Source: Treponema sp.
GTDB taxonomy: Bacteria; Spirochaetota; Spirochaetia; Treponematales; Breznakiellaceae
Direction of reading: 5' to 3'
Assembly: GCA_031266635.1 (NCBI GenBank)
Contig: JAISAN010000101.1
Coordinates: 1 to 35,160, forward strand
DNA length: 35,160 nucleotides
Positions 2,994 to 24,334 of the stretch are shown one piece after another. Every line of letters starts with the position of its first letter. The first letter of the stretch is position 1. A program made the position numbers and the translations under genes. The notes beneath the pieces were generated by a model. That model made no database searches, was not told where the DNA came from, and saw nothing but the letters and a program-made list of their open reading frames with translations.

Positions 2994-3034
2994 ACAAACT
3001 CCTTATTAAGGGTAACAATTCTTCGGCATGAATG

Positions 3035-3060
3035 AAAACCCCCGCCTTTCCGGGCGGAGG
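3035..3060 (-). terminator. Rho-independent terminator after the beta-helix hydrolase gene
   Basis: On the minus strand: CCTCCGCC-CGGAAA-GGCGGGGG (8-bp GC stem with one G-U) followed by TTTTCATTCAT. It starts 4 nt after the stop codon at 3064-3066. Confidence 0.6.
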
Positions 3061-3063
3061 TCT

Positions 3064-6626: not shown

Positions 6627-6694
6627 CGGCGCTCCTTTCTCATGATGAAATCATACAAGGCATTTTTTTCCTGGAGCAGCGCAAGTTTCATACG

Positions 6695-8296: not shown

Positions 8297-8330
8297 TTTT
8301 TCGCTCCACAAAAAGAATTATTTAGAATCT

Positions 8331-8450
8331 GAGGCTGTTCCAAAACTTCAGTTTTTGGAACAGCGACCTTAGATTTACATGGAAAAGGGGGTATTTGACC
8401 ACTTTTCCAAGAGGTTGTTTCAAAACCAACCGGGTTTTGGAACAACCTCA
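8331..8450 (+). repeat. BIME/REP-like composite repeat B1 (three hairpins, 16-bp terminal inverted repeats)
   Basis: Near-identical to 24794-24907. Hairpins 8334-8364 (12 bp) and 8411-8449 (16 bp, loop CAACCGG), plus a central GGAAAAG.../...CTTTTCC hairpin. The ends GAGGCTGTTCCAAAAC and GTTTTGGAACAACCTC are inverted (15/16). Confidence 0.85.
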
Positions 8451-8499
8451 TCTGTCCATAATGTAGACACTTTATGAAATCGGACCAATTTCCCAATCC

Positions 8500-9399
8500 C
8501 TACCCCTTAACCGCTCCTACCATAATACCTGAAGTAAAGTACCTCTGCAAAAAAGGGTATAATAATACTATCGGTCCGATGGTTACCATAGCGGTGGCCA
8601 TTTTTATGGTTGATGCCGGCAGATCGAGGGCGGAAATACGCATTTGACCGGCCATTTGGGTCATAAACTCCACGTTTCGCAGCATTTTCATTATCATCAT
8701 CTGCAGGGGCTGGAGATGGTTGCGATCAATGTAAAGCATGGCCTGAAACCAATTGTTCCAGTAACCCAGCGCGTAAAAAAGGCTTACCGCCGCGATCGAC
8801 GGCACCGCTACAGGCAGAATAATTTTGAAAAGGATGACGAGTTCGTGGGCGCCGTCCATACGGGCCGACTCGGCAAGGGAAGCGGGAACGGAGGCAAAGA
8901 AATTACGCATTAAAAACATATTCCACGGGTTGATCAATATGGGTAAAATCAATACAAGGAGATTGTCTTTCAAATGCAGATAGCGGGAAACAAGCATATA
9001 TGTCGGTATCAGACCGCCGTTAAAAAGCATGGTGAAGTATACAAAAAAATTGATCTTATTGGCGTATTTCAGTTTCCCTGACGCCAGCGGATAGGCCATT
9101 AAAACCGTTACCAAAAGGCTCAACAGCGTTCCGCATACCGTTACAAATATCGACACAGCGTAGGATTGATATATCTGGCTGCTCTTGAACAGCATTTTGT
9201 AAGCCGACAGTGAAAACCTGCGGGGGAACAGGGAGAAACCGTCCCGGGCTATGGATAACTCATCGGAAAACGATGCCGACAGCGCAATAACGAATGGTAT
9301 AAGGCAGACCACCGTAAAAATGAAAATAACGCCGTAACACAGCCCGGTAAGCATGCGGTCTCCCGCGGATTCCCGTATGGTATTTGCTCCGATGGTCAT
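8500..9399 (-). CDS. Carbohydrate ABC transporter permease (LplC/YtcP-like)
   Basis: 299-aa polytopic ORF with the EAA-loop region AESARMDGA. Confidence 0.9.
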   Translation of the reverse strand: MTIGANTIRESAGDRMLTGLCYGVIFIFTVVCLIPFVIALSASFSDELSIARDGFSLFPRRFSLSAYKMLFKSSQIYQSYAVSIFVTVCGTLLSLLVTVLMAYPLASGKLKYANKINFFVYFTMLFNGGLIPTYMLVSRYLHLKDNLLVLILPILINPWNMFLMRNFFASVPASLAESARMDGAHELVILFKIILPVAVPSIAAVSLFYALGYWNNWFQAMLYIDRNHLQPLQMMIMKMLRNVEFMTQMAGQMRISALDLPASTIKMATAMVTIGPIVLLYPFLQRYFTSGIMVGAVKG

Positions 9400-9412
9400 A
9401 TTGCCGGCCCCC

Positions 9413-10339
9413 CTAAAATATAGCCGAGCCCGGTTCGAGCCTGCGTGCGATTAGATTTGCGGAATAGACAAAAATTAAACCGAAGACACTTTGCAGCATC
9501 CCTACCGCCGTTGCCATGCCGTAATCGCTCATGCTGCGAAGCATACGGTACACGTAGGTATCGATAACGTCTGTGGTGGAAAAAAGCAGAGCGTTATCCT
9601 GAACAATACCGTAGATCATGCCAAAATCACCGTAGAATATACGGCCCACGCTGAACAACGTCATCAGTATAACGACAGGCCGCAGATACGGAATGGTGAT
9701 CCGCATGATGATTTGCAGACGGCTCGCGCCGTCGATGCGGGCAGCCTCAAATATGCCGGTATCCATGCCGGTTATGGCGGCAATGTATACGACAGCCATG
9801 TAGCCCGCGCCCTGCCAGATGCGTAATACGACCAGAATAAAGGGCCAGAATTGCGGGGACGAATAAAAATTAATGTCAACGCCGCGGGCACTGAGGAACG
9901 TGGGAATAATACCGCCGTCTGCCTGCAAAAAACTCTGCAGGAACAAGGCGATAACCGCCCATGAAATAAAATACGGTAAGATGGAAATGGTCTGGGTAAA
10001 CCGTTTTGTTTTTTTGTGCCTGATTTCGGAAAACATAATTGCCAGCGTTACGGCGGTAAAGGTCGTAAAAACGATAAACAATATATTGAGATACAAGGTA
10101 TTCAGCATCACCTTTAGGATTGTGTTATTTACAAACAGGAATTTAAAGTTGGCAAGACCGGCAAAATTACTGCCGAATACGCCGCGTATCAAATTGAATT
10201 CCTGAAACGCAATGACGAGGCCCCCCATGGGCAGGTAACTGAACACGAAAAAGAACAGTATACCCGGTACCATTAAAAGGTAAAGCGAGAAATTCTTTTT
10301 TATTTCCCCCAAAAAGGAACCCGGGTTTTTTACTGCCAT
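9413..10339 (-). CDS. Carbohydrate ABC transporter permease (LplB-like)
   Basis: Start set to the internal ATG at 10339 (MAVKNPGSFLGEIKK...). The 64-codon upstream extension overlaps the preceding gene and is Arg-rich nonsense. EAA loop EAARIDGASRLQ. Confidence 0.88.
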   Translation of the reverse strand: MAVKNPGSFLGEIKKNFSLYLLMVPGILFFFVFSYLPMGGLVIAFQEFNLIRGVFGSNFAGLANFKFLFVNNTILKVMLNTLYLNILFIVFTTFTAVTLAIMFSEIRHKKTKRFTQTISILPYFISWAVIALFLQSFLQADGGIIPTFLSARGVDINFYSSPQFWPFILVVLRIWQGAGYMAVVYIAAITGMDTGIFEAARIDGASRLQIIMRITIPYLRPVVILMTLFSVGRIFYGDFGMIYGIVQDNALLFSTTDVIDTYVYRMLRSMSDYGMATAVGMLQSVFGLIFVYSANLIARRLEPGSAIF

Positions 10340-10356
10340 TGTTTTTCCCTGCCGGT

Positions 10357-11958
10357 TTACCTTGAGTACATCAGCGTACCGAAACCAAGCTGATCGTATC
10401 CGCCGCTGGTAGAACCGTAATCCCCGCCGCCGCCTTCGGGGGACATGCCATCCACGCCCATCTTGGTATAATACGCCTTTGATTCCGTAAGCCCTTTCAC
10501 TTTTACGTAATGATAATAGGGGCCCGACCACATGGGACGGACCGTACCCCTGCTGGAGGAACTGATCTGCGTATGTTTTTCAACCAGGGGATTGGGATAT
10601 TGATTTTTGTTACCCCACAGCCGGACGTATTCGTGAAAGGGCACATCAAGCCCGGCGACGTTGTACTTCGCCGTGTATTCGCAGGCTTTAAGAAAACGGT
10701 TGTCGTCAAGGCCGTAAAAATCGTCGCCCTGATTCCAGGTCAGTTGGCAGATAAAATCCATCAGGGCGATACATAAAGTGGCGTGCCCCTGATCGCGGCC
10801 GCTTTCCTGTAACTGCGCCAATTCCTCATTCCCCACCGTATGAAGGTAATTGATCGCCTTGTACCAGTTACCGTTCCCATTGCCGTTTTGAAGGTAATCT
10901 ATGGCCAGGTTGTAAATATCCCGCCGGTCGCACAGTATACCGATGGCGAGGACGGAAGCCAGGTTACAAAGATCCCAGTTCGCCCAGTAATGATCATCGT
11001 GGGTGTCATGATGACGGGTGAGAAAATCCCTGTTTTTGGGGAAGAAAATATTTAACATCCACTGCTGAAAGGCGGAAAAATCAGCCGAGACCCAGCCCGA
11101 ATAAGCGCGGAGCAGTTCACCGGCCACGGCGAACTGATAGCCGTAAATCCCCGCCGCCAGGCTTTGGTCGGTGGTACCGGTTATTTCGCCGGTGCATATT
11201 TTCGCCCACTCATTCAGAATATACACGCCCCGGGCGGCGAAACTGCTGTCCCCGGAGATTCTCCACCGCAGGGCCAATTGGTACGCCGCCGCGGCATCGT
11301 TAAAGGCCCGGGAATAATTTTCCGAGGGCCCGCCGGAAGCCGCGCCCCGGACGATCTGCGTTACCGGATTCGGGGTGTACGAAATCTGGGCGTGTGAATT
11401 CGCGGTCAGTTTATTCCACCCGGAAACCCAGGGCTCCTCGCCGGCCGCCAGTTTCGCCTTGATCCGGTCAAAATCGGCATCGGTATGGAGGCCGCCAACG
11501 TGAAGCAGTGGGGTTGAAACGGGCTTTTGCCTGATTTCATCATCGGAGTAGGCCGCCACGGTAAGGGCAAGCCGTTTGCTTTCAGTTTTACCGGTCCCGG
11601 TAACCGATACATAATAGGTCCGGGCTTCAAGGTCGCCGGCGGCGGTGAGGGTAAGGAGCGGGACGCTGAAGGCCGCGCTGACGCCGTTCATAACAGTGGA
11701 ACCGGCAGCGGTAGTGTAAACCTTCCAAACACCGGTGTATGTACCGGTGAGGGTAAAGGATACAGATTCCTGAGTTTCGCCGGTTTTGAATACGGTGCTT
11801 TCCGCTGCCACAGGCGTTGCGGACTGTTCCGGTTCGCCGGTTTCGCCGCCGGTAAGGCCGGGGCAATTACTCAACACAAAAGCCGCAAGCAGCGTTAGTA
11901 CCAGCAGTCTGAACAAGAACGCCGGTTTCCTCTTTTCCACGGTTCCCGTATCCTTCAT
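10357..11958 (-). CDS. Lipoprotein: N-terminal Ig-like domain fused to an alginate-lyase-fold (alpha/alpha toroid, Pfam Alginate_lyase-like) domain
   Basis: Start set to ATG 11958 (MKDTGTVEKRK..., RBS GGAGAAGGG immediately upstream). Lipobox VLSN-C. DDHYWANWDL and QESGRDQGHA motifs. Paralog of 17129..18625. Confidence 0.6.
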   Translation of the reverse strand: MKDTGTVEKRKPAFLFRLLVLTLLAAFVLSNCPGLTGGETGEPEQSATPVAAESTVFKTGETQESVSFTLTGTYTGVWKVYTTAAGSTVMNGVSAAFSVPLLTLTAAGDLEARTYYVSVTGTGKTESKRLALTVAAYSDDEIRQKPVSTPLLHVGGLHTDADFDRIKAKLAAGEEPWVSGWNKLTANSHAQISYTPNPVTQIVRGAASGGPSENYSRAFNDAAAAYQLALRWRISGDSSFAARGVYILNEWAKICTGEITGTTDQSLAAGIYGYQFAVAGELLRAYSGWVSADFSAFQQWMLNIFFPKNRDFLTRHHDTHDDHYWANWDLCNLASVLAIGILCDRRDIYNLAIDYLQNGNGNGNWYKAINYLHTVGNEELAQLQESGRDQGHATLCIALMDFICQLTWNQGDDFYGLDDNRFLKACEYTAKYNVAGLDVPFHEYVRLWGNKNQYPNPLVEKHTQISSSSRGTVRPMWSGPYYHYVKVKGLTESKAYYTKMGVDGMSPEGGGGDYGSTSGGYDQLGFGTLMYSR

Positions 11959-12008
11959 CCCTTCTCCTTCTGAAAAAGCCGCCTGAGCCTCAGAGACCGG
12001 CATAAACG

Positions 12009-12032
12009 CCCGTCCGCGGTGAAGCGGACGGG
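12009..12032 (-). terminator. GC-rich hairpin between the 993-aa lipoprotein gene and the lyase gene (possible attenuator or partial terminator)
   Basis: Minus strand CCCGTCCGC-TTCACC-GCGGACGGG followed by CGTTTATG. The T-tract is weak, so read-through is likely. Confidence 0.3.
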
Positions 12033-12077
12033 TACTTGCGTTCCGGCAGCCCGCACGGCCGCCAGACAATACTGCTT

Positions 12078-15059
12078 TTAATCGCCGCTGCCGACGGCAT
12101 TTAATTGAGCCACCACCGCGGCGACGCCGCTCAGGTCGGCGGCAATCTTGGCCGCTTTGGTAAAGACGTACTTGTACAAGCCGGAATTCCGCATATTCCC
12201 GGCAAGCACGGTATTTATGTTGTCAAAGGCGCTTCGGCCGCTAAGCACACTGCCGTATGTACTGGTTGCGGCCTGCGCACCGTTGAGATAGGTCGTTATA
12301 TCATTACCGGACCGGACAATGGCGATATGGCACCAGGTGTTTAGCGCGGGCGTCCCCATACCGGTTCCCCGTCTTGCGGTCCCTTCGTACAGATTAAACT
12401 GCCACGCGTTGGTACTATTGTTGGGCTTTTCAATACGCAGAGAACCATCCGCATTTTTCCCCGTTGGGCCGTACATGACCAGGACATCCTTCGCTGTGCC
12501 TCCAACATCCCCCACCTTGTAGTACAGCTCGATAGTCCAGTCCGTTGCCGAGCGAATAAAGGCGCCGCTAAACGGATCCAGGGTAACAGTATTGTCGGCG
12601 GCCCCAAAATTAACCACGTTAAAGCCGTTGACTGTCCCAGCGCTGGTATCGGCGGAAAATTGAGACCCGATTGTTCCGATAGACACCGCGTTATTATACA
12701 GGGTTCCGATAAATTTGCCGTTGTCAACCTCGTAGCTGATGCTGGTCAGATTCCCGGCCGCCGTGGCGTCTACCGTCCATGTGGCGTACACCGTGACAGC
12801 CTCATCACTTATCGGGGAAGAATCGGTAAAAGGTGCCCCCGTACCGGCCGCGGCGGTGTTCCACCCCTGGAACGTATGGCCGCCCCGGGCGGGATTTACC
12901 GGCACTTCCACCGTCTGCCCCACCTTTCCCGGCACGACCTGGATAATGGCGCCGCCGGTCCACATGCCCCAGTTCCCATCGAAGGTAACGAGAGCGTCCA
13001 CCGCTTCGTCAATCCAGTGGGCGTACAGGGTGATGTCTCCGGTTATAACCGTTGACGGCTCGTACTTTATACCCACCGTGGCATCGGTATACCAGCCGTC
13101 GAAGTTCTTGGTCGCATGGGTAAGGTCGCTTAAACCGGGCCATTCCGCCGCGGCCACGGTTCCGCCCGCGCCGCCGATAGAGTTTACCGTAGCGGTTTTT
13201 GTGGTTCCACCGGAGATGAAAGTTCCGTCGTTGGCGTTAAAGGTAACGGTGAAGGTTTCGACCTGGTTTAGCTGGTTCACCACCGTGGTAACACCGGCGG
13301 CGCTAGGAATTATGGCGCTGCTATGGACCTTAAACTGGTAGAACTTGAGGTAATTCGCGCCGAAATAATTGTAGAACAGGGATTTGAAGTAATTGTTTGA
13401 AGCCAGCATACTGAAACTTGTCGTCCCGTCTTCTTTCAATTCGCCGTTCAGGTAAACGTCAATATTATCGCCGCTCTTGACATAGGCTATGTGGAACCAG
13501 CGGTTTGCGGCAAAAACGGGGGAACCGGCGGGGGAAGAAGAATTTAGCGCGGTCTGAGTACGGGTAGAACCGCTGTTACCGGTACGGACAATAAAATACC
13601 AGTTCGGATTTTCAACCCAGATACCGCCGTAATTCTTGTCGTTGTTGAGCCGGGCGAAATTCAGGGGGTTGGGATTGTTGCCCGTACCCGTCGCCAGGAC
13701 ATAAAACTCCACAGTCCAATCGGTTTTGGTCAACAAGGCTCCGGCCTGGGGGCCGAAGTTAAAGCGGTTGCCGTTGGAGACTTTGAGCGTATCGATGGTT
13801 TCAACAGCCGGACTTCCCGGTAACACCGCCCCGTTGGCGTCCACCGGGGGAACGGCAAAGGTCTCGTTATAGCTGCCGCCTGAAAGCGTACCCGCAACGG
13901 CGTCCCCCGCCCCGTTTACCGCGTAACTCACCGTGCTTATGCCCAGACTGTTGTCCCATTCCCACCGGGCGTAAACCGTAATGTCCTCCGTTACCGGTGT
14001 TAAGGTGGTAAGTTCCGTGCCCCAATTCTCCGTTCCGTCACTAGTGGAATCGGATTTTCCGGTATACCAGCCCGCGACCCTAAATCCTTTCAGGACCGGT
14101 ACGGGCAGGGCTCCCGTTTCCCCCACGGCGTGGCCGGTTTTTACTTCCACAATCCGGGTCTTTGCCCCATCGTCAAAAGCGCCGATGTGGGCGTCAAAGG
14201 TAACGTTGTAGCGCTGGATATATGCGCCCCAGCGGGCGTACAGAACGGTATCCGCCGTTATGACCGCCCCCTTGCCGACAAGTTCGCCGTCCTCAACCCC
14301 GGTGTACCAGCCGTCAAATTCACTGCCTGTTTTTTCGGGATCGGCGGGCCATTCGGAATCCGGCACTTTCCCGTCGCCGGGATAGGTTACGGTCGCCGTT
14401 TTGGCCGCTGTTGAGCCGCCGCTAAACTCCCCGCCGTTAGGGTTAAAGGTAACGGTGTAACTTATGGCCCCCCCGTTCCATCTGGCGTATACGGTCATAT
14501 CGCCGGTTACTTCCGTTTCGGTTGTAAAGGGCGCTTCCCAGAGATCTTTGTCGATATACCAGCCGATAAAAACATCGTTCGACTTGGCAGGATCCGAAGG
14601 AAACCGGTTTGCCGTTACCGTTTTATTGGGACTGGCTACGGTTACCTGCCTCGTATCGGCGTTGTTAATTTTACCGCCATTGGCATCGAAGGTAACGGTA
14701 AAAGACCAATTCCAGCGGGCGTAGATCGTTATATCCCGGCCTACCACCTGGGAAAAATCGTATTGGGTATTTCCCTCCGCGGTCGTGTACCAGCCAGAAA
14801 AGGTATAACCGCCGTCCCTTGCGGGTTCGGCAAGTTCACCCAGCGTCAGGACAGTACCGTTTTCTTTTACGATGCTTACGGTATTTTCACCGTCCTCAAA
14901 ATAGCCGCCCGAAGCATCCAGAATAATCGTAACCGTTTCAGAATTGTTGTTGAGATTTGGCGTAGTTAAGGGATTACAGCCGCCAAAAAACAGGGCGGCC
15001 ATCACCGCGAACATAAGTCCCGCCGGAAACAGGCGGTATATTTTGTTTTTCCGTTTCAT
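12078..15059 (-). CDS. Large surface lipoprotein: 4 Listeria-Bacteroides (InlB B-type) repeats + LamG, then 2 repeats + LamG
   Basis: 993 aa. Lipobox FFGG-C. Six units of the form [FY]TVTF[DN]xNGG...GW[YN]...[IV]T[ILV]YA[RHT]W. Two concanavalin/LamG-like modules (WTVEFYV...WFHIAYVKSGDNIDVYLNGE and WTIELYY...WCHIAIVRSGNDITTYLNGA). Confidence 0.75.
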   Translation of the reverse strand: MKRKNKIYRLFPAGLMFAVMAALFFGGCNPLTTPNLNNNSETVTIILDASGGYFEDGENTVSIVKENGTVLTLGELAEPARDGGYTFSGWYTTAEGNTQYDFSQVVGRDITIYARWNWSFTVTFDANGGKINNADTRQVTVASPNKTVTANRFPSDPAKSNDVFIGWYIDKDLWEAPFTTETEVTGDMTVYARWNGGAISYTVTFNPNGGEFSGGSTAAKTATVTYPGDGKVPDSEWPADPEKTGSEFDGWYTGVEDGELVGKGAVITADTVLYARWGAYIQRYNVTFDAHIGAFDDGAKTRIVEVKTGHAVGETGALPVPVLKGFRVAGWYTGKSDSTSDGTENWGTELTTLTPVTEDITVYARWEWDNSLGISTVSYAVNGAGDAVAGTLSGGSYNETFAVPPVDANGAVLPGSPAVETIDTLKVSNGNRFNFGPQAGALLTKTDWTVEFYVLATGTGNNPNPLNFARLNNDKNYGGIWVENPNWYFIVRTGNSGSTRTQTALNSSSPAGSPVFAANRWFHIAYVKSGDNIDVYLNGELKEDGTTSFSMLASNNYFKSLFYNYFGANYLKFYQFKVHSSAIIPSAAGVTTVVNQLNQVETFTVTFNANDGTFISGGTTKTATVNSIGGAGGTVAAAEWPGLSDLTHATKNFDGWYTDATVGIKYEPSTVITGDITLYAHWIDEAVDALVTFDGNWGMWTGGAIIQVVPGKVGQTVEVPVNPARGGHTFQGWNTAAAGTGAPFTDSSPISDEAVTVYATWTVDATAAGNLTSISYEVDNGKFIGTLYNNAVSIGTIGSQFSADTSAGTVNGFNVVNFGAADNTVTLDPFSGAFIRSATDWTIELYYKVGDVGGTAKDVLVMYGPTGKNADGSLRIEKPNNSTNAWQFNLYEGTARRGTGMGTPALNTWCHIAIVRSGNDITTYLNGAQAATSTYGSVLSGRSAFDNINTVLAGNMRNSGLYKYVFTKAAKIAADLSGVAAVVAQLNAVGSGD

Positions 15060-15074
15060 AAAAACATCTCCTGT

Positions 15075-15173
15075 AAGGCGCGTTCAAAACTCCGGTTTTA
15101 AGCGCGCCTTCTGTTTAAAGTTCCAGTGGCAGTCGTTCGGAAACTTCAAACCAATGGTTTGCGGTTTCCGAAC
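15075..15173. repeat. Palindromic-unit pair B5 (divergent member of the REP/BIME-like family)
   Basis: Hairpin 15075-15110 (AAGGCGCG..TTCAAAAC-TCCG-GTTTTAA..GCGCGCCTT) and hairpin 15135-15173 (GTTCGGAAAC / GTTTCCGAAC enclosing CAAACCA-A-TGGTTTG). It lies in the 118-nt gap between two minus-strand genes. Confidence 0.6.
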
Positions 15174-15177
15174 AACG

Positions 15178-15612
15178 CTAAGGTTGATTTACCGTGAGGG
15201 CAAGCCGTTCACTTTCGGCCCGGTCCCGTTCGGTAACCGATACATAATAGGTAAGGGAATCAAGGTTGTTGGCGGCGCTGGTCAACATCAGTTTGGAAGA
15301 AGGCTCGCCGGTCCCCGCGCTGAGGGTCTTTTGGTAAGTCACAAAAATACCGTCCAGTGTTTTGCCGCCGGTATCCGTGTCATAGACCTTCCAGATACTG
15401 CCGGCGGGGTGTATACTGGTGAGGGTAAAGGTAACGGACTTTTGTACCGCCGATGTTTTGACCACCGTGGCTGCCGCAGCCGTTGGCGCGGCGGAGGGAT
15501 CAATTTCGGGCGCTTCACCCGGACAGCCGGCAAAAAGACCCGCGAAAAAAAGCAGGGCCGGCAGCAAAAAGGCAAGACGGTTCGTCCGCCGTTCCGTTAA
15601 AAACAAATTCAT
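15178..15612 (-). CDS. Small lipoprotein consisting of a single Ig-like domain homologous to the N-terminus of the 10357..11958 lyase-fold protein
   Basis: 144 aa. Lipobox LFAG-C. KSVTFTLTS...WKVYDT...LTYYVSVTERDRAESERLALTV aligns with ESVSFTLTG...WKVYTT...RTYYVSVTGTGKTESKRLALTV. Confidence 0.6.
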   Translation of the reverse strand: MNLFLTERRTNRLAFLLPALLFFAGLFAGCPGEAPEIDPSAAPTAAAATVVKTSAVQKSVTFTLTSIHPAGSIWKVYDTDTGGKTLDGIFVTYQKTLSAGTGEPSSKLMLTSAANNLDSLTYYVSVTERDRAESERLALTVNQP

Positions 15613-15615
15613 ATA

Positions 15616-17112
15616 TTACTCTCCGTTTAATGCGTTTACGATTGCTGAAACACCCGCGAAATCGGCCTCTGTTTTGATGCCTTTGGTAAAGGTTATCTGA
15701 TAAAGCTTCGCATTGTTCAGCGCGGTGGTGAACAGGCAGTGGGTTACGGACTTAAACGCGGCGTTACTAAAGGCAGGACAGTTTCTGTCCTGCATAAACT
15801 CGCCGTTCAAGTAGGTTTTTAACGCTCCGCCATTTCTGGCAATGGCCATGTGATACCACCGGTTACGGCTCCCCGTGGAGGAAAGCCCAAAGTCAGGCCG
15901 GTCACCCGTATTGGGCCGGTAAATCCAGAGGCCGTGACCTTCCATCCAGAAAGCGCCGTCGTTTTCGGCGCCTGTGCCGTAAAACCGGATAGCCTTCGCC
16001 GCTCCGGCGGCCACGGTGTCCCCCAAATTGATGTACAGTTCGATGGTCCACTCGTTTTCGGCCAGATATGAACCTCCCATCTGACCGATGTCCAGCGTAC
16101 CGGTAGTGGTATTGGCAGGGAATTCCAGTACCCGGTAAGCATTGATCGTACCGGTGCTAGTGCCGGTATTATCTATGGGACGGATGATGCCGCCGTTTGG
16201 TATGGTTCCCACAAATTCGCCGTCTTCATTAACGCCATAGGTGATAGTATCAATGGCGGAATAGGTCCACTTGGCGAATACCTCTTTATCCCTGGTTATC
16301 CGGGTATCTTTGTCAAAGGCCACGTTATCCGCGGTAAACCAGCCTTCCAGCGGGAAGTCCGCCATTGCGGGGGTTTCGGGCCAGGATCCCGCTTCCTCAA
16401 GCGTAGTCGCCGCGGGGGCGTTTATCTTAACTTCCTTGCGTAATTCCGCCGGTCCCCAGCCGCCGCCGTTGGCGTTAAAGGTAACGGCAAACTCCTGGGG
16501 GCCGCTATACCAGTAGGCGTAAGACTGGGCTCCGTTTTCAGACAGGTTAAGGCCGGTAACCGGCGTCGTATTACCGAGCTCTTTGGCATAATCAGGCGTG
16601 CCCCCCGGCATTTCGGTAAACCAGCCGCCAAAAGCGTTATTGCCACTTGCCGGAAACGGCATATTGGATATTGTCCACGGCGGCCTTTTTACATTAACCG
16701 TAAAGATTTCGCCGCTGCCGTTTATGGTCCCGCCGTTGGGATTAAAAACAACGCGGTAATCTTTCGATGGATCGGCCCCGTTGCCCCAATAGGCGTAGAG
16801 GGCAAGATCCCGGTTGACCTCCCAGGGCGGTTCAAACAGATCACCTTCTTCCGCACGGTCATACCAGCCCCGGAATTGATATCCGGAGTAGTATGGTTCA
16901 GGTAATTCCTCGAGCAATTCTCCCGCATACATATTCAGCTTCATGCTGTAGGTTGGTTTTGAACTTTCCGTGGTCTGTTCCGCGGCGGTGTCAAAAGTTA
17001 TGATATGGGTCTTCGCAGTTTCTCCTCCCAGATCGCAGCCCGGCAGAATCACAAATGCCAGCGGCAAAAGTACCGTGACCACCGTTATCGCCTTTGTAAA
17101 AAATCGTTTCAT
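15616..17112 (-). CDS. Surface lipoprotein: 3 Listeria-Bacteroides repeats + C-terminal LamG domain (paralog of the 993-aa protein)
   Basis: 498 aa. Lipobox ILPG-C. Repeats end LALYAYW / SYAYW / VFAKW. LamG module WTIELYINLGD...WYHMAIARNGGALKTYLNGE. C-terminal tail matches those of the 993-aa protein modules. Confidence 0.75.
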   Translation of the reverse strand: MKRFFTKAITVVTVLLPLAFVILPGCDLGGETAKTHIITFDTAAEQTTESSKPTYSMKLNMYAGELLEELPEPYYSGYQFRGWYDRAEEGDLFEPPWEVNRDLALYAYWGNGADPSKDYRVVFNPNGGTINGSGEIFTVNVKRPPWTISNMPFPASGNNAFGGWFTEMPGGTPDYAKELGNTTPVTGLNLSENGAQSYAYWYSGPQEFAVTFNANGGGWGPAELRKEVKINAPAATTLEEAGSWPETPAMADFPLEGWFTADNVAFDKDTRITRDKEVFAKWTYSAIDTITYGVNEDGEFVGTIPNGGIIRPIDNTGTSTGTINAYRVLEFPANTTTGTLDIGQMGGSYLAENEWTIELYINLGDTVAAGAAKAIRFYGTGAENDGAFWMEGHGLWIYRPNTGDRPDFGLSSTGSRNRWYHMAIARNGGALKTYLNGEFMQDRNCPAFSNAAFKSVTHCLFTTALNNAKLYQITFTKGIKTEADFAGVSAIVNALNGE

Positions 17113-17128
17113 AATAAACCCCGCCTTG

Positions 17129-18625
17129 TTAATTTATGCCCAGTTCCCGAATCAAATCCGGCCCCGCTATAAGGAACGATCCGTAAGCCGGGGGAGAATC
17201 CGATCCATCATACTGTTCACCGTCCCGGGTGAGATATGATTCGGTCCAGGGCATGGAAAAGCCCCGCCGCCGGTGGTAGTGGTTGTAAACAGTCTCAAAT
17301 GCGGGTTTCCCGCTTCCCCGGCTCCCGGAACCGGGCGACCCTACCCCGATAAGATTGCCGTAAATATTTTCCGGGTTGTGACCTGAAACATCATCCCAGT
17401 TGGGATCGAAATAGTACCACGCGCTGTAGGGATCAAATTCCATAGGCGTGTGGGTCCAGTTGTTGTCCCCGGTATTGTACCGGGCGGTAAATTCACTGCC
17501 CTTCCACAGCGAGCTGTCAAAGGCCGTGTATACATCATCACCCTGTTTGTATGCCATCTCGCACACCATGCCCAGCTTCATAATGCCCAATACGGCATGC
17601 CCCTGATCCCGTTTGGTTTCCTGGGTCTGGCCGGTTACGGGGTGGACGTAATTGGCGAGGTTGCCGTTGTCAAAACCGCCCAGCCAGAAATTCAGGGATT
17701 TGTTGTACATTTCCTGATCATCAAGAAAAATCGCCATCCCCATATAGGCCGACGTAACGATAAGGCCGACGTTTCCCTGGGTGTTCGGCGTAATGGCGTA
17801 AAACCGTTCCATGCTCTCGATCCAGACATTCCGCATGGAATTTTCGATGTTCACAAACTGGCGGGCAGTCAGTCCCGAGCTTTTGTGGTTCACCGTATCC
17901 TTGCCGTGTTTCAGGAGTTCCGCGGCGCAGGCGAATACCGCGCCCTGTAGACCGGTCATAAGCCGGTAATCCCCGGTACCGCCGTCCTTCAGGCCCCTGG
18001 CAGTCTGGGAATAGGCGTCCAGGATCTCAAAAGATTTCATGGCATGCCGTTTATCCCCCGTAAGCATCCACATCAGGGCGTTGAGATACGCGGCCTGGAA
18101 ATCGGTTTCAATATTGGTTTTGTTGCTGCCGTACACCCCGTCCCGGGCAAGGTACACGTAGGGGCCTTTTAAAGTGTAGGTGTGCTGGGCGCTGCTGTTG
18201 GCTCTGAGGCTGTTCCAGGAACTCCGGGCCCGGTATTCGGCATAGCCCCTGCGGTTCCCGGCCTTGAGTTCCCGCCAGGCCGCCCATTTTTCCGGTTCCA
18301 CCACCGATTCATTGGTGTTAAAGTCCTGTCCCGAAGCCGTCGCCGGATTTAATTCCGCCGCCGGATCGGCGGGCGGCGTGGCGGGAGTTACGGCCTGTGA
18401 TATATCGGTTACGGCCGTATACACTCCATCCCCGTCATTGTCGGTCCACTCAATAATGCCTTCCCACCGGTCAATCAGTTTTCTAAGGGCCTCCATATCT
18501 TCCTGGGTATGAAGTACGCCCGGATGGAGAAATCCGTTCCGGGGCGTATACCCCGTGGGACTCATTTTGCATCCTGAAAACAGAATAAGGGCAGGTAGAA
18601 GCAGCGCCGGTATAATTTTTTTCAT
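17129..18625 (-). CDS. Alginate-lyase-fold (alpha/alpha toroid) lipoprotein, paralog 2
   Basis: 498 aa. Lipobox LFSG-C. QETKRDQGHAVLG matches QESGRDQGHATLC of paralog 1, and FQAAYLNALMWMLTGD matches AAAAYQLALRWRISGD. It carries an extra DNDGDG-containing insert. Confidence 0.6.
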   Translation of the reverse strand: MKKIIPALLLPALILFSGCKMSPTGYTPRNGFLHPGVLHTQEDMEALRKLIDRWEGIIEWTDNDGDGVYTAVTDISQAVTPATPPADPAAELNPATASGQDFNTNESVVEPEKWAAWRELKAGNRRGYAEYRARSSWNSLRANSSAQHTYTLKGPYVYLARDGVYGSNKTNIETDFQAAYLNALMWMLTGDKRHAMKSFEILDAYSQTARGLKDGGTGDYRLMTGLQGAVFACAAELLKHGKDTVNHKSSGLTARQFVNIENSMRNVWIESMERFYAITPNTQGNVGLIVTSAYMGMAIFLDDQEMYNKSLNFWLGGFDNGNLANYVHPVTGQTQETKRDQGHAVLGIMKLGMVCEMAYKQGDDVYTAFDSSLWKGSEFTARYNTGDNNWTHTPMEFDPYSAWYYFDPNWDDVSGHNPENIYGNLIGVGSPGSGSRGSGKPAFETVYNHYHRRRGFSMPWTESYLTRDGEQYDGSDSPPAYGSFLIAGPDLIRELGIN

Positions 18626-18650
18626 ATATGCCTCCTGTATACCCTCATGT

Positions 18651-20024
18651 TTAGAAACCCAGGTGGAAATAAACAGGGATAGTAATCAGGGTGTCCAGTT
18701 TACTGGGGCCCGACCGGTCTACCCCCAGCCCTTCACCGCCCGCATAGGAAATGCCGGCCCTGATGTAGCAGTCGGCGTTTACAAAATTCCACTGCGCATA
18801 AGCGCCGAAGCCGTATTTCACGCCCCCCTTCTTGTTGAGCCTGTCGTAATAATTCTCATCGCCGTAAATTTCAATACCCCCGTCGCCGGCAACGCTAAAG
18901 CGGTCGTTGAATTTATAGGAAGGGGAAAAATAAATTTTCGTTACCGGGGCCATGTCTGTTCTGCCGCTGCCGGTAGGTTCGCTGTATCCGCCGAAGCTGA
19001 ACTCGCCGCCGCCGCGCAGGGACAGATCAAAACCAAAATCGTACTGTATCCCCAAAGACACCCGGTGGGGTTCAAGGTAATTCCCCACGGTAATTCTTGG
19101 TTCGTAATAGACAATCTCGCCTGAGTCATTAAGAGCGGGAACCAGGACAGTGGGGTCCATAACAAGGAGGGACAAGGTTCCGCCCAATTCCGCGGTTAAA
19201 CCGGGCAAGCCGGTATAGGCAAAGGCCGCCTGAAAGCGGGGGCCGTTGTTGCTGTCGTTATTATCGCTGTCGGCAATCTTTCTGGTGTTGGGGGCGGGAT
19301 GAACGCCGATGTACTGAAACCGCGCGGAACCGATATTGGGAATATCGTAACCCACGGCGGCCTGAATATTTTCAAGCATATATTTCGCTTCCGTATAGCC
19401 ACCGTATATGCCCCGGTTATTGGCGCTGTTGGCTTCGATAATGTTGTACATCATGGCTCCCAGGTAGAGGTTTTTCAGGGCCGGAACCAAATCGCCGAAG
19501 GGACCGGGAAATTCCAGGGCTATGGCGTCCCTGCCCTCAAACCTGGTGAAAATACTGTCCGTGCCGCCATCCCCAACGCCAAGGTAATCCCCCCAGTTAA
19601 AGCCCTCCACCTTGCCGCGGAGGGTGTCAATGTTAAAGCGGCCCACGTCTATTTTGAACCACTCAAAGGGCCTGTACCATCCGTAGAACATATCCAGTTC
19701 GATGCTGTCAATAAAGTTGAGAATGTCCTGCTGCCGGTTGTCATACCACCAGGGGTAGAGGGCGATTTCCGCATAAAGCCCCACCGTATCCTTCAAGTCG
19801 GCGGTGAAGGTGAGGCTTAACTTGCTCCGGTTGTCGTTATTTCCCCCAAAGCCGCTTACCACGATAGGGTCCCCTATGGGCGTCCATTCGGGGTCATCCC
19901 GATCCACATAGTCAATAACCTGAACCATCGCCGCCGCTTCCATCCCGCCGCCGACAGAAATTTCGGCAAAAACTTCCCCCGCTGTTATCAAACATACAAC
20001 CAATACCAACATTAATTTTTTCAT
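18651..20024 (-). CDS. Putative outer-membrane beta-barrel (porin-like) protein
   Basis: 457 aa. Cleavable signal (VFA-EIS). Gly/Tyr/Asp-rich with alternating hydrophobic stretches. C-terminal YFHLGF ends in Phe, as in many OMP beta-signals. Confidence 0.55.
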   Translation of the reverse strand: MKKLMLVLVVCLITAGEVFAEISVGGGMEAAAMVQVIDYVDRDDPEWTPIGDPIVVSGFGGNNDNRSKLSLTFTADLKDTVGLYAEIALYPWWYDNRQQDILNFIDSIELDMFYGWYRPFEWFKIDVGRFNIDTLRGKVEGFNWGDYLGVGDGGTDSIFTRFEGRDAIALEFPGPFGDLVPALKNLYLGAMMYNIIEANSANNRGIYGGYTEAKYMLENIQAAVGYDIPNIGSARFQYIGVHPAPNTRKIADSDNNDSNNGPRFQAAFAYTGLPGLTAELGGTLSLLVMDPTVLVPALNDSGEIVYYEPRITVGNYLEPHRVSLGIQYDFGFDLSLRGGGEFSFGGYSEPTGSGRTDMAPVTKIYFSPSYKFNDRFSVAGDGGIEIYGDENYYDRLNKKGGVKYGFGAYAQWNFVNADCYIRAGISYAGGEGLGVDRSGPSKLDTLITIPVYFHLGF

Positions 20025-20110
20025 TTACTTTTCCCGCTCCTTTCGATTTTTGAGAGAAGCCGCCAACGGCTGCCCGAACCCCTCATAAATAAGACCACAA
20101 AGGCCGTTCC

Positions 20111-20794
20111 TCATTTGTAAATAAAGAAATCAAAATCAACGATTTCGCACCAATACTGGCTTGCTGTAGAGGTATTAACAGCCGAGCGCATATCAAAATT
20201 CAACATCCGCAACTGGTTGTAATCAAAATTGTCCGGGTTGTTATCCGGGTAATCGCTCAGGGCCTCGACATTTTTTACCGCTTTGTAAAAGGGAACCACA
20301 ATTTCCTTGTAGTTTGTTGGATTTGCGGCTCCGGCTTCGTAATCGTGGGCCTTAAACCCTACGCCCCAGACGGCCCAGCGGTAGGAAAAATCAAGAAATT
20401 TAACGGTAACTTCGGTACAATTGGTACGATATTTGAAGACAATGCCATCATAGGCACTGGCGTCGAAGGGTACCCCCCTGATATCAAGATCGCCGTCAAT
20501 GTTCCATACCCGCACGCCGTCATAGGGCCTCCCCTCCGCATCGCCGGCAGCCGTCGCGTTGGTACTGTCCAGTCTCCAGGTTTCCCCGGAGTCGGCTTCG
20601 TTCGGGACCAGCCAGCCGCAGTCGTTCCCGTGATTCGCCATAGCTTTGGCGCCGATTGAAAAGACATCGCTCAGATTAACCGGAATCCGCTCAATCTCAC
20701 TGCCCGGCACTTCACCGCAGCCTGAAAAAACCAAGGTGAACGCTAGCGCCGCTATTACGAACAGCCGCCCCGTCATCCCTATTGTTTTTTTCAT
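20111..20794 (-). CDS. Lipoprotein of unknown function (possible beta-sandwich / CBM-like)
   Basis: 227 aa. Lipobox VFSG-C. Aromatic-rich sequence with no recognisable catalytic motif. RBS AGGAGG 6 nt upstream of the ATG. Confidence 0.5.
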   Translation of the reverse strand: MKKTIGMTGRLFVIAALAFTLVFSGCGEVPGSEIERIPVNLSDVFSIGAKAMANHGNDCGWLVPNEADSGETWRLDSTNATAAGDAEGRPYDGVRVWNIDGDLDIRGVPFDASAYDGIVFKYRTNCTEVTVKFLDFSYRWAVWGVGFKAHDYEAGAANPTNYKEIVVPFYKAVKNVEALSDYPDNNPDNFDYNQLRMLNFDMRSAVNTSTASQYWCEIVDFDFFIYK

Positions 20795-20998: not shown

Positions 20999-22642
20999 TT
21001 AACTGTCCAGATAATCCTGAACCTGGCGGACGATTGCATCCTTGACTTTGGCAAGCCCGGCGGCTTCCATTTGACGGTTCATTTCCCGGAGGATCGCGGC
21101 GGGGTCTTCGTAGGCTCCACATAACAGGGCGTTATGGTACTTTTTTAATATGACCCGGATATTTGCCAGCTCGCTGATAATTTCCCGGTCATCGAGGACA
21201 AAATCTGAAACCGGTATACGGGTAAAGGCATCGGGGGCATACTGATATTCAAACAGGCTTCTCACGTCCTCAGGCAGCCCCGCGGGAATACGGATAAAAC
21301 GGGGGTTCCAGGTTAATTCATAGCCGGGGAACAGATACCGATCCGCCTCGGAAAGCAGGGGATTCGGAACCGGTGTGGATGAATCATCCGCCATATTCCA
21401 GTGAACACCCCTGATACCGTATGAAAACAAATCGTTATGTTCCCGGGATTCAAAAACCCAATTCAAAAATTCAAAAACCTTTTCCGTTTTAGAGGAATTC
21501 CGGGGAACGCATAAATAATTCCACGCCCGGAACGACAGGGCGATGCTTCCCTTTTCCCGGTTCCTGGCGGCCTCAATGTACGGCCAGAAAGCGATCGACG
21601 CCTGGGGCAGATGGGTTTTCAGGGTATTTTGCCACCGGCTGAATTCGCTGACCGCTCCTTCTCCGGCGGCGGCAAAACCATTAAAAAACAGGGGACCCGC
21701 CTGTTCCCGCATCACCGAATCTTCGCTCACATAGACGTTCCACTTTGCCGCCTCCAGAAAATAACGGTTGAAACCCTCAAAGGTATTATATGGGTTGGGA
21801 TAGGCCGTATAGGAGTCTTCGGGATCGCCGTAGGCCGATACGCCGGTTACCCGCTTCCCATCGGACGAAAGTCCCACAAAAAACAGTTCCCTGACGCCGC
21901 CAATGATGCCTTCTATTGGGTAAATACCTTTCGCCGCCATGTCCCAGGTTGCGTCAAACATCATATAAAAACCCCGGTTGTTTTGTATGGATATGGGAAT
22001 CATACCTTTTTCTTCCCGCAATATGGTTTCAAAAAAAAAGCGGAGATCATCGTAGCTTTGTATCGTAATGCCGTAGGCGTCGGCCAGGTCTTTCCGGTAA
22101 TAGATACCGGGAATATCCAGCGGCGCGTTCATAATGGGGATGCCATAGATACCGCCGAAAAAATGGTTGCTGTCAAGAAAGGCGGGAGGAAAGGCTGAGC
22201 GGAGGCTCGAAAGGGCAGGATTGTCAAAATAACCGCTCAGTTCCTTGTAAACATTTTTTTGTATCAGAGAATTCAGATTCATCCAGGGTGCGTTAAAAAC
22301 CAGATCCGCTTCGGTACCGGTACTGGCAATCAAGGCTATCCGTTCCAGGTAGTCATCCCGGAGCATGGTATGAATCCGGATATCGATATTCAGCGTTTCC
22401 CTGGTTTGTTGTTCAAATTCCGCTATCACCTGATCCACATTCCGGTAGGTTTCATTGGAAGCGAACATATATATATTGATAACCGTTGCCTCCCCACCGG
22501 ATTGAAGGGGACTTTTTCCGCCGCATGAAAACAGGTGGAGAAAAAGGGCGCAAAACGCCGCAGCCGGAACCCACGCCGCCGGAAGGGGAATCCGCTTTGC
22601 GAAACGTAATTTATGTGACATTTTCCGCATTATGTTTTCCAT
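20999..22642 (-). CDS. Large extracellular solute-binding lipoprotein (SBP2), paralog of SBP1
   Basis: Start is uncertain (ATGs at 22669, 22663, 22642, 22630, 22621). All choices overlap the 3-prime end of the regulator gene. Lipobox HLFS-C. DUF3502-like C-terminus (VKDAIVRQVQDYLDS). Confidence 0.8.
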   Translation of the reverse strand: MENIMRKMSHKLRFAKRIPLPAAWVPAAAFCALFLHLFSCGGKSPLQSGGEATVINIYMFASNETYRNVDQVIAEFEQQTRETLNIDIRIHTMLRDDYLERIALIASTGTEADLVFNAPWMNLNSLIQKNVYKELSGYFDNPALSSLRSAFPPAFLDSNHFFGGIYGIPIMNAPLDIPGIYYRKDLADAYGITIQSYDDLRFFFETILREEKGMIPISIQNNRGFYMMFDATWDMAAKGIYPIEGIIGGVRELFFVGLSSDGKRVTGVSAYGDPEDSYTAYPNPYNTFEGFNRYFLEAAKWNVYVSEDSVMREQAGPLFFNGFAAAGEGAVSEFSRWQNTLKTHLPQASIAFWPYIEAARNREKGSIALSFRAWNYLCVPRNSSKTEKVFEFLNWVFESREHNDLFSYGIRGVHWNMADDSSTPVPNPLLSEADRYLFPGYELTWNPRFIRIPAGLPEDVRSLFEYQYAPDAFTRIPVSDFVLDDREIISELANIRVILKKYHNALLCGAYEDPAAILREMNRQMEAAGLAKVKDAIVRQVQDYLDS

Positions 22643-24197
22643 AATTATCACTACTCCCTCCATCGCCATATTTTTTACGGTACATTTCAGCGGTCAGCCC
22701 GGTAGACTGCTTAAAAATCACATAAAAATGTTTGGCGTTGAGAAAACCGGCCCGTTCCACGATTTCATGGACATGCATATTCGTCTCGACCAGCATCTTT
22801 TTAACATATTCCAGCCTCGTATCGGTCAGGTATTTGGAAAGGGATATGCCCTTGACGGCCTTAAAAATGGCCCGCAGATAATTGGGGGACAGGCCGATAT
22901 GTTCGGCAATCGTTTCTATGCTTATAGTGCCGTTTGAAAAATTACGGTTAATATAATCGGCGGCCATTTGTACCCATTCGTTTTTTCGGGTTTCAGAAAC
23001 CGCCACCGCCCTGGCCTTCATTTCGGCAAAACGTTCAATACCGGATTCGAGTTTTTGTACGGTCGATACAAGGTCAAGATATTCATGCCGCAGGTCATCG
23101 TAGACCTTCATGGAAAGGTTCAGATCTTTTTGGTTTTTTATATCATTGACGGTCCGCATGAGATCATACAGCGGGGTATACATATACTTGGATAGAAAAA
23201 AGGATATAACCAGGCTGGCCAGCATAAACAGAACGCTGATAACCGTCATAACGGTTTGTATTCTGTTGAAATTGGCGAGCAGCTCCGCTTTATTGCCAAG
23301 GCCGATAAACACCCAGCCCAGAGACGGGGATTTTTTATAGGTAACGAGGTAATCCGTTACCCCCCCCCCCCCTCCCCCCCGTCCGGGGTGGTACGTAAAG
23401 GAATCGTTCGCAAGTCCTGAACCGGTAATCATGCGGTACAGCTCATCTTCACACAGGTTTTTGTTTATCATGTCCGGATCGGAATCGCTGATAATAACGC
23501 CATTCCGGTCAATCACCAGGGTTGCATGTCCTTTGTCAAACAGGGGACCTTCGATTAACTTTTGAAAATACCCCTGATCAATATTGACAATAAATGCCGG
23601 CGTGCTCATACCGCGGTTCAGGCCAAAAAAAACGCTGATCCAGTTTTCATCTACCGTAAACGCTCCGTAGGTATCGGTAAACTTGACCTTTCTGGACAAA
23701 AAAACCGGCTTTTCATTTTGATCTTCCACCATCAGTACCGCATCACGATCAAACATTTCCGCCCGTCCGGCAATGCCGGCGGCGCCGTTAAAGCAGTAAA
23801 AAAAGGCGTCCTCGCCGGGGTTGTAAATGTACAGGGAACGGACCAGCCTGTTGCTTTTCACTTCCTCTCGCAGCCGCGCAAAGATCATCATATAGTCATC
23901 GGATTTTCGTAAAGCCTCGCCGTACATGGCTTTTATTATCACGTCATCGCTTGAATACACCTGAAACAAACGGTTATAGAGCGACTCAAAGAGCAGTTCG
24001 GTGATGCTGTAAGACTGTTCCATGTATTGCCGCGATTTTTCTTCGATTTCCTGTATATACTGCCCCTTGATTATCCCCATAATCAGACCGGATACCAGAA
24101 ACATAACAAAAGCGCCGACCACAAAAAACAGCAACATCGTGCGGAAAATGAGGGAATTCTTTTTAATATACTGAAACGCCCGGGCAACAAACGGCAT
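22611..24197 (-). CDS. Membrane-anchored AraC-family one-component regulator (TM - extracytoplasmic Cache-like sensor - TM - HTH)
   Basis: Start set to ATG 24197 (MPFVARAFQYIKK...). The GTG-extended ORF to 24281 reads through repeat B3. Two hydrophobic segments (LLFFVVGAFVMFLVSGLIMGII and VMTVISVLFMLASLVISFFL). C-terminal AraC HTH (IETIAEHIGLSPNYLRAIFK...KHFYVIFKQSTGLTAEMYRKKY). Confidence 0.8.
   Translation of the reverse strand: MPFVARAFQYIKKNSLIFRTMLLFFVVGAFVMFLVSGLIMGIIKGQYIQEIEEKSRQYMEQSYSITELLFESLYNRLFQVYSSDDVIIKAMYGEALRKSDDYMMIFARLREEVKSNRLVRSLYIYNPGEDAFFYCFNGAAGIAGRAEMFDRDAVLMVEDQNEKPVFLSRKVKFTDTYGAFTVDENWISVFFGLNRGMSTPAFIVNIDQGYFQKLIEGPLFDKGHATLVIDRNGVIISDSDPDMINKNLCEDELYRMITGSGLANDSFTYHPGRGGGGGGVTDYLVTYKKSPSLGWVFIGLGNKAELLANFNRIQTVMTVISVLFMLASLVISFFLSKYMYTPLYDLMRTVNDIKNQKDLNLSMKVYDDLRHEYLDLVSTVQKLESGIERFAEMKARAVAVSETRKNEWVQMAADYINRNFSNGTISIETIAEHIGLSPNYLRAIFKAVKGISLSKYLTDTRLEYVKKMLVETNMHVHEIVERAGFLNAKHFYVIFKQSTGLTAEMYRKKYGDGGSSDNYGKHNAENVT
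23360..23380 (-). repeat. Homopolymer tract inside the regulator CDS: C13-T-C7 on plus strand (G7-A-G13 on coding strand)
   Basis: Read directly: 23360-23372 are all C, 23373 is T, 23374-23380 are all C. It encodes the R-G-G-G-G-G-G stretch (PGRGGGGGGV) in the predicted sensor domain. Confidence 0.95.
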
Positions 24198-24228
24198 AAG
24201 TCCCCATCCGAAAATTTTTCTTACACTA

Positions 24229-24334
24229 GACTTGTTCGACAACCCGGTTGGTTGTCTCACAAGTCTTACAAAATGCCTCACATTTTGCGGTTTTCAGCGG
24301 AAGTTGTTCGGAAACTTGAGGTTTCCGAACAGCT
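24229..24334 (-). repeat. BIME/REP-like composite repeat B3 (inverted orientation, divergent stems)
   Basis: Three hairpins in the same order as B1/B2 when read on the minus strand. 24229-24265 has loop CCGGTTG, 24268-24286 is CAAAATG/CATTTTG, and 24302-24334 has GTTCGGAAAC/GTTTCCGAAC arms. Confidence 0.75.

Follow-up and report, generated by a model that had tools for sequence, protein, structure and literature searches.

We analysed a 35,160-nucleotide (nt) stretch of DNA from Treponema sp. (GenBank assembly GCA_031266635.1, contig JAISAN010000101.1, positions 1 to 35,160 of the forward strand; the whole stretch is called the window below), in which a long guanine homopolymer lies inside the gene of a membrane-bound AraC-type regulator. 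This gene is the first of about 15 co-oriented minus-strand genes (854-24281) forming a 23-kb polysaccharide-degradation and ATP-binding cassette (ABC) uptake cluster. The tract, the regulator gene and the parts of the protein that it encodes were located as follows.

23360..23380, minus strand: poly-G tract G7-A-G13, 21 nt, encoding (R)GGGGGG(V); the proposed hypermutable element.
22611..24197, minus strand: regulator coding sequence (CDS), 528 amino acids (aa); a one-component membrane sensor-regulator with a first transmembrane segment (TM1), a dCache domain, a second transmembrane segment (TM2), a long helix and an AraC-type helix-turn-helix (HTH) domain.
24063..24155, minus strand: TM1, residues ~15-45, from a hydropathy scan and a helix in the AlphaFold model.
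23262..24062, minus strand: extracytoplasmic dCache-type sensor domain, residues ~46-312, from Pfam dCache_1 and Foldseek.
23184..23261, minus strand: TM2, residues ~313-338, from the hydropathy scan; missing from all out-of-frame alleles.
22674..22910, minus strand: AraC-type HTH (HTH_18), residues 430-508, Pfam E-value 7.9e-18; missing from all out-of-frame alleles.

On the plus strand the tract reads C13 (23360-23372), T (23373) and C7 (23374-23380), that is G7-A-G13 on the minus, coding strand, which is the run of 13 identical bases with 7 more after a single interruption that a preliminary description of the window had placed in the regulator CDS. It stands at codon 273 of 528, 817 nt 3' of the start codon, and its codons CGG GGG GGA GGG GGG GGG GGG GTA encode R-G6-V inside ...YHPGRGGGGGGVTDY...; the A that breaks the run (23373) occupies the third position of a Gly codon and is therefore synonymous. 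The window has a G+C content of 52% and its next longest G/C run is 7 nt. G/C runs of at least 13 nt are expected 0.0014 times per 35,160 nt under a model of independent, identically distributed bases and 0.0019 times when the run-length decay of the window is extrapolated, and the expected number of 21-nt windows with at least 20 identical G/C is 2e-6, which confirms that the tract is real and far beyond chance. PhasomeIt uses a cut-off of at least 7 for phase-variable poly-G/C tracts (PMC6321876); the tracts of the window lineage (16-21 nt) exceed this threshold and sit in a reading frame.

To define the product, we compared the mechanical open reading frame (ORF; 22611..24281, minus strand), which reaches a GTG at 24281, with its orthologues, whose alignment places the conserved start at the ATG at 24197, behind a GGGGA Shine-Dalgarno sequence. 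A Pfam search returned a dCache_1 match that spans the tract with 26.7 bits, under the gathering score of 45, together with C-terminal matches to HTH_18 (65 bits, cut-off 33.6) and HTH_AraC (48.7 bits, cut-off 26.6), so that the protein carries the C-terminal double-HTH AraC domain by which the AraC/XylS family is recognised. A structural model was built with AlphaFold from a 76-sequence family alignment (mean predicted local distance difference test score, pLDDT, 89.6; a 9-sequence alignment gave 46 and was not used). The N-terminal half of this model matches solved dCache domains (TlpA, PscC, Mlp24 and Tlp3; Foldseek E-values 1e-9 to 1e-7, target TM-scores 0.5-0.65), and, together with the transmembrane segments from the hydropathy scan, it has the layout of a dCache sensor, with tandem PAS-like modules on a long N-terminal helix between two membrane-spanning stretches. 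In the model the tract corresponds to a surface loop, residues 270-282, that joins strands 264-269 and 283-290 of a beta-hairpin, and the sole pLDDT dip of the sensor domain (69, block 271-280) is found there; the tract thus falls within both the Pfam match and the modelled loop, as expected from the earlier proposal that it lies in the sensor domain. The HTH domain aligns with PDB 6swi, the C-terminal domain of AraT, at 32% identity (E-value 2.4e-16, Foldseek TM-score 0.85), and its closest matches are AraC-type output domains from carbohydrate response regulators, namely AraT 6swi, YesN 3lsg and one from a hybrid two-component protein of Bacteroides. When compared with P0016-P0161, the 528-aa regulator of the window appeared as a short variant within a large family of ~770-aa proteins with the order transmembrane segment, dCache, transmembrane segment, AraC, in which an extra ~250-aa domain (PF17853, GGDEF_2-like, in P0009) separates TM2 from the HTH; very few short-form sequences were seen among 1.8 billion representatives.

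We then simulated every tract length. With every length that is not a multiple of 3, translation stops between residues 277 and 288 and so reaches neither TM2 nor the HTH; the stop is either a TAA directly after the tract or lies eight codons further on (0-8 codons past the tract). The prediction that any slip would truncate the protein ahead of these two elements therefore holds for shifts of +/-1 and +/-2 nt, and a natural allele with 16 G, described below, is indeed split into ORFs of 285 and 257 aa. An in-frame ATG at the start of TM2, from which a sensor-less TM2-HTH protein could possibly be restarted in such alleles, has no Shine-Dalgarno-like sequence in front of it.

Comparison of tract length in related strains had been put forward as a test of slippage. 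The protein cluster of the regulator at 90% identity comprises exactly three contigs, the window included, which carry the alleles below; lengths are those of assembled consensus sequences, not of reads.

Window: G7AG13, in frame.
Logan SRR14710921 (contig L001): uninterrupted G18, L001 954-971, in frame with one Gly fewer.
JGI 3300042612 (contig L002): uninterrupted G16, L002 1346-1361, out of frame; a 285-aa 'hypothetical protein' and a 257-aa 'YesN/AraC' fragment.

The tract is thus present at the identical codon in three independent assemblies and two strains, since the window differs from L001 and L002 (together strain B) at 3-3.7% of nucleotides (96-97% identity) and is therefore a separate strain. 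Over 6,696 nt, L001 and L002 are 99.955% identical, with one synonymous single-nucleotide polymorphism (SNP), and their sole indel is the tract itself (2 nt); no second, compensating indel was found in the G16 allele in this comparison. Tract length accordingly varies between near-identical strains, as far as assembled consensus sequences go, and one of the three lengths (G7AG13, G18, G16) is frameshifted. A scan of metagenomes with the upstream flank plus G7 (TACCACCCCGGACGGGGGGG) returned one further contig (L003), which was rejected as a chance match with no BLAST similarity to the window or to L001 and L002, and no extra alleles were obtained in this way.

These differences might also be read as technical, the tract being a neutral, flexible poly-Gly loop that is stable in vivo, the regulator being always ON, and G16, G18 and G7AG13 differing through errors of the polymerase chain reaction (PCR), sequencing or assembly. 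Miscalling of long G-runs is notorious, the contigs of strain B (1 SNP in 6.7 kb) may share a population or even reads handled by different pipelines, assemblies of the sister clade treated below break at poly-G, showing that such tracts trouble assemblers, and the regulator gene is under strong purifying selection, as described below. We nevertheless regard this explanation as unlikely: a consensus error of 2 nt requires that a doubly slipped species outnumber the true length, the one-codon (3-nt) difference and the synonymous A that separate the two strains are real evolutionary changes of the tract, and experimentally studied bacterial G/C tracts of at least 8 nt all vary in vivo (PMC6321876, PMC7864442, PMC2823697), so that stability of 16-21 G would be unprecedented.

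We also considered that the run acts mainly through nucleic-acid structure and not through frameshifting, with an intramolecular G-quadruplex, formed in the mRNA or in the non-template DNA strand, modulating transcription elongation or translation of the regulator. ViennaRNA with G-quadruplex energies did place a three-layer quadruplex on the tract in 3/3 alleles, and the local minimum free energy of the window allele fell from -28.9 to -58.2 kcal/mol when the quadruplex was allowed. The prediction is non-specific, as it arises for any run of at least 15 G, quadruplex-type spacing is not conserved in orthologues, and neither the frame-breaking allele nor the in-frame spacing of the other two is explained; we hold this explanation to be very improbable.

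To trace the origin of the tract, we examined the same site in the regulator family. Orthologues at 63-67% identity read ...SYHEGG/TDYLV... here (the slash marks the position of the tract), with the DNA CAT GAA GGG GGA ACG (or GGC GGA or GAG GGA). The seven residues GGGGGGV were occupied in 0/75 of the other members of the 76-member alignment, and no run of at least 4 consecutive Gly occurred in any of 149 more distant family representatives, on which ground we rejected poly-Gly as a general trait of the family. Both results together indicate that the tract is a lineage-specific expansion, by ~7 codons, of a short G-run in the hairpin turn. The nearest named genome, Spirochaetia bacterium PG1894_85, encodes a regulator with 67% protein identity and has kept its synteny with the solute-binding protein gene; a profile search of genome contigs with the family alignment returned only this genome, and no close strain.

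The gene itself is well preserved. Between the window and strain B, the ratio of nonsynonymous to synonymous substitution rates (dN/dS) was 0.08 for the part of the gene 5' of the tract and 0.03 for the part 3' of it. The low values in both halves indicate that the whole protein is under purifying selection and that the downstream half is normally translated, and the value downstream of the tract further implies that OFF alleles are transient and that the OFF allele of strain B is recent.

A second poly-G site was found at the other end of the gene in a sister clade, defined as the four contigs L005, L006, L007 and L009, which share 82-84.5% nucleotide identity with one another and ~72% with the window. 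Three of them carry a tract at the very 3' end of the regulator gene (G22 at L005 7528-7549, G22 at L006 3743-3764 and G21 at L007 1446-1466), after ...AEMFRR or ...AEMYRKAL, with the contig ending 13-41 nt past each tract; L009 ends (6639) exactly in front of the 3' poly-G site. No poly-G was found at the opposite ends of the related contigs, and this, together with the differing sequences that precede the tracts, indicates that the 3' tract is real, conserved and assembly-breaking. The corresponding part of the window is the following.

22640..22667, minus strand: G-rich 3' tail of the regulator gene (GGCGATGGAGGGAGTAG), covering the Shine-Dalgarno sequence and the start of the binding-protein gene that follows.

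Within it, the site aligned with the G21-22 of the sister clade is 22651-22667 (GGCGATGGAGGGAGTAG), which is also the ribosome-binding region of the binding-protein gene. Three small frameshifting indels swap the C-terminal tail of the regulator between the window (22640-22667), which ends ...GDGGSSDNYGKHNAENVT before the stop, and strain B (L001 1672-1686), which ends ...GDGGIDKWKT before the stop. Across the regulator genes of nine loci (13.8 kb) we counted 6 G/C runs of at least 9 nt, against 0 in 74 kb of flanks. The position and alignment of the sister-clade tract suggest a second, independent hypermutable site that would act on the C-terminal tail, on translation of the downstream gene, or on both. 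In the L009 regulator (ENA assembly ERZ28643736, ~6294-6296) an in-frame TAA replaces a conserved Glu codon (GIERFT-stop-MKARA), which is either a nonsense allele or a sequencing error.

With both sites at hand, an assembly artefact, in which poly-G read tails of two-colour chemistry are built into the contig, could be assessed. NextSeq and NovaSeq instruments typically yield poly-G where there is no signal, and the sister-clade tracts do lie 13-41 nt from contig ends. Against this, the tract of the window is internal to a 35-kb contig, with contiguous coding sequence of one gene, colinear with orthologues, on both flanks; it is reproduced at one codon in three assemblies; and the sister-clade tracts recur at one gene position in three different sequences, on contigs whose other ends are free of poly-G. 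The internal position, the three assemblies and the poly-G-free opposite ends effectively refute this explanation, to which we attach next to no probability.

The same comparisons bear on whether the tract is a non-adaptive hotspot, a runaway expansion of G5 at a dispensable locus whose OFF alleles would be recurrent losses of function and incipient pseudogenisation. Orthologues work without the tract, the in-frame TAA of L009 suggests occasional loss of the regulator, the interruption in the window allele would damp slippage, and accessory glycan loci are often gained and lost. On the other hand, the tract has been kept in two strains that have diverged by ~3.5% of nucleotides, with both halves of the gene under strong purifying selection; the OFF allele bears no further damage; and an independent long tract has been kept across three sister lineages ~16% diverged, with none in 74 kb of neighbouring DNA. 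We judge such decay to be a rather improbable account.

The reading that we favour, and consider probable on the sequence evidence, is that the tract is a slippage-driven translational phase-variation (contingency) switch that turns the locus regulator ON and OFF. An ancestral G5 (GAA GGG GGA) in a turn of the dCache beta-hairpin would have expanded into a simple-sequence repeat (SSR), to which replication strand slippage would add G or from which it would remove them. As the hairpin loop would tolerate extra Gly, in-frame lengths (15, 18, 21 ... G) would give the full-length protein with both transmembrane segments, dCache and AraC domains, that is ON, and lengths that are not multiples of 3 would give a secreted or anchored sensor stub with neither TM2 nor the DNA-binding domain, that is OFF. 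OFF alleles would then silence induction of the locus in a heritable and reversible manner, because the regulator stands first in the 23-kb cluster and carries an output domain of activator type. We infer the in-vivo origin of the length changes, their reversibility, the activator role and the adaptive value of the switch.

Several points weigh against a switch. Illumina chemistry, library PCR and assemblers all introduce length errors into runs of G16-G21, and the G18/G16 difference could be technical, the more so if SRR14710921 and JGI 3300042612 should prove to be the same sample. The alleles number only three, two of them in frame, and hold no statistical power on ON/OFF ratios. The A that splits the window tract into 7 + 13 should reduce its mutability, and transcriptional slippage or reinitiation could make the OFF state leaky. 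That the regulator is an activator and controls the full 23 kb is a putative role deduced from its family and the gene order, and the region upstream of the regulator differs between strains. Orthologues at 63-67% identity, PG1894_85 included, do without the tract at this site. The preliminary description had named orthologues without a homopolymer at this position but with unchanged regulation as grounds for refutation, and the first half of this is what the site itself shows, while 3/4 of the sister-clade contigs have G21-22 elsewhere in the gene. All in all, its predictions that could be tested on sequence were all borne out, and its interpretation is partly supported.

The genes presumed to be under control of the regulator are listed next.

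20999..22642, minus strand: ABC solute-binding lipoprotein (SBP_bac_1 + DUF3502), the first structural gene, overlapping the regulator 3' end.
854..20794, minus strand: the rest of the co-oriented polysaccharide-utilisation cluster, the presumed regulator target.

The second of these stretches comprises two unknown ORFs, two proteins with an alginate-lyase fold, two Flg_new/LamG surface proteins, two ABC permeases, a second binding protein (bringing the DUF3502 solute-binding proteins of the cluster to two) and enzymes of the glycoside hydrolase (GH) families GH31, GH28, GH43 and GH88. No other DNA-binding Pfam match was found among the minus-strand ORFs of at least 150 aa between 854 and 24281, two of which had no match of any kind, in agreement with the claim that this is the sole regulator of the locus. 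On the far side of the regulator lie tRNA-Arg, maf, rpsB, tsf, frr, uppS, cdsA, dxr and rseP. A scan for promoters and terminators around the regulator gave nothing over shuffled expectation, and no operon boundaries were found in it.

Such an arrangement has parallels among carbohydrate sensors. In the Bacteroides hybrid two-component systems and the Firmicute YesM/YesN and AraS/AraT-type systems (PDB 6swi, 3lsg, 12aw) an extracytoplasmic sugar sensor is coupled to an AraC-type activator, and these AraC-output systems are encoded beside the glycan-degrading and ABC-transport genes that they induce. In contrast to them, the sensor of the window is fused directly to the HTH, with neither kinase nor receiver. 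Phase variation through a simple-sequence repeat is not known for any of these systems.

Among phase-variable systems, the preliminary description had drawn a parallel with the tpr genes of Treponema pallidum. What stands of it is the poly-G repeat in a spirochaete: the tracts of tpr, tp0126 and tprL vary in vivo, with length heterogeneity measured within and between isolates, but they are 7-12 G long and lie in promoters, where they tune transcription initiation through spacing or regulator binding (PMC7864442), whereas the present tract is intragenic and would act through the reading frame. We found no minus-strand promoter-like site adjacent to it, as a tract of the promoter type would have. 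The analogy is therefore only loose, and bvgS, flgR/flgS and rmpA are nearer precedents. In Bordetella pertussis bvgS, a G/C homopolymer likewise lies in the ORF of the membrane sensor of a master regulator and frameshifts switch the regulon (PMC7742992), but that tract is of ~6 C, varies at ~1e-6 per generation and belongs to a two-component kinase for virulence genes of a pathogen (Stibitz et al. 1989, in PMC7742992), compared with 16-21 G in a one-component protein with transmembrane, dCache and AraC parts at a glycan-utilisation locus of an uncultured spirochaete. In Campylobacter jejuni flgR/flgS, slippage at homopolymers in regulator genes gives truncated OFF proteins (Hendrixson; PMC3930126), with revertants, in-frame pseudorevertants and several independent tracts in one regulatory system (PMC3930126); the differences are that the runs are short and of A/T, that the proteins are a cytoplasmic NtrC-type response regulator and a kinase for the flagellar regulon, and that switching has been shown experimentally (PMC3930126). 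Klebsiella pneumoniae rmpA also has a poly-G in a regulator ORF, with reversible ON/OFF switching, a polysaccharide-related phenotype and further repeats in adjacent genes, but encodes a small LuxR-type cytoplasmic regulator of capsule synthesis on a virulence plasmid (bioRxiv 10.1101/2025.09.12.675794), unlike the present sensor-regulator for polysaccharide catabolism, whose tract is about twice the length. For tract length, Helicobacter canadensis offers tracts of 12-20 G that vary within populations (PMC2823697). Its C-terminal phase variation, in which the tail is swapped and the protein kept, is a precedent for the G21-22 at the 3' end in the sister clade (PMC2823697) and does not apply to the mid-gene tract of the window; the sister-clade tract moreover falls on the Shine-Dalgarno sequence and the start of the following gene. 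Unusual here are the very long tracts, the one-component dCache-AraC sensor over a glycan-utilisation locus and the recurrence at two sites of one gene in sister lineages.

A wider reading, which we offer tentatively as a possibility, is that uncultured, probably gut-associated spirochaetes have repeatedly evolved poly-G of 16-22 nt at two sites of one dCache-AraC sensor-regulator, the one in the middle of the sensor serving as an ON/OFF frameshift switch and the one at the 3' end, over the Shine-Dalgarno sequence of the first transporter gene, as a switch of the tail or of translation, so that commensal glycan foraging would be governed by stochastic, heritable bet-hedging and not by substrate sensing alone. 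SSR phase variation is a textbook feature of pathogen surface structures and has been documented in a few regulators (bvgS, flgR/S, rmpA); to our knowledge, hardly any cases have been described in carbohydrate-utilisation regulons or in non-pathogenic spirochaetes. If the wider reading were true, SSR contingency loci would extend from surface antigens of pathogens to nutrient-utilisation regulons of symbionts. If the switch itself is real, the 23-kb polysaccharide-degradation and uptake locus would be expressed only in a heritable subpopulation, a division of labour or bet-hedging relevant to glycan partitioning in gut and fermenter communities. In metagenomes the annotation of the regulator will flip between 'intact' and 'pseudogene', as it already has in JGI 3300042612, and assemblies break at related tracts. 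With one tract, one regulator and one defined gene cluster, the locus is a clean case for testing.

Some minor observations were made around the regulator and on its relatives. A small repeat resembling a miniature inverted-repeat transposable element, with the palindromic cores CAACCGGGTTG and GTTCGGAAAC..GTTTCCGAAC, occurs in the window at 24229-24330 and also at 24392-24416 and 24872-24902. The first copy abuts the regulator, 31 nt 5' of its ATG, at the very point at which homology to strain B stops, and strain B has a 141-nt copy (L001 3548-3687) in frame in the signal-peptide region of a lipoprotein (window counterpart 20111-20794). Directly 5' of the regulator leader, strain B has a textbook promoter (TTGAAA ... 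TGCTATAAT; L002 ~461-497); since the window has the repeat at 24229-24281 in its place, the regulator promoter differs between the strains. Between the locus and maf lies a tRNA-Arg(CCG) gene (24637-24710, minus strand), and a 17-nt direct repeat of its 3' end, 206 nt away, was found together with an inverted copy of the T-arm (24431-24447, 24560-24573); both may be traces left by integration or rearrangement at the edge of the glycan locus. L011 (JGI contig Ga0466699_163137) opens with part of the regulator gene duplicated in inverted orientation (1-353 against 368 onward), which is probably a hairpin-type artefact of assembly. The top two A/T runs of the window, T9 at 4406-4414 (a GH28-family gene) and A9 at 22031-22039 (the binding protein), lie in minus-strand genes of the locus and fall short of the usual A/T threshold for phase variation of at least 10.

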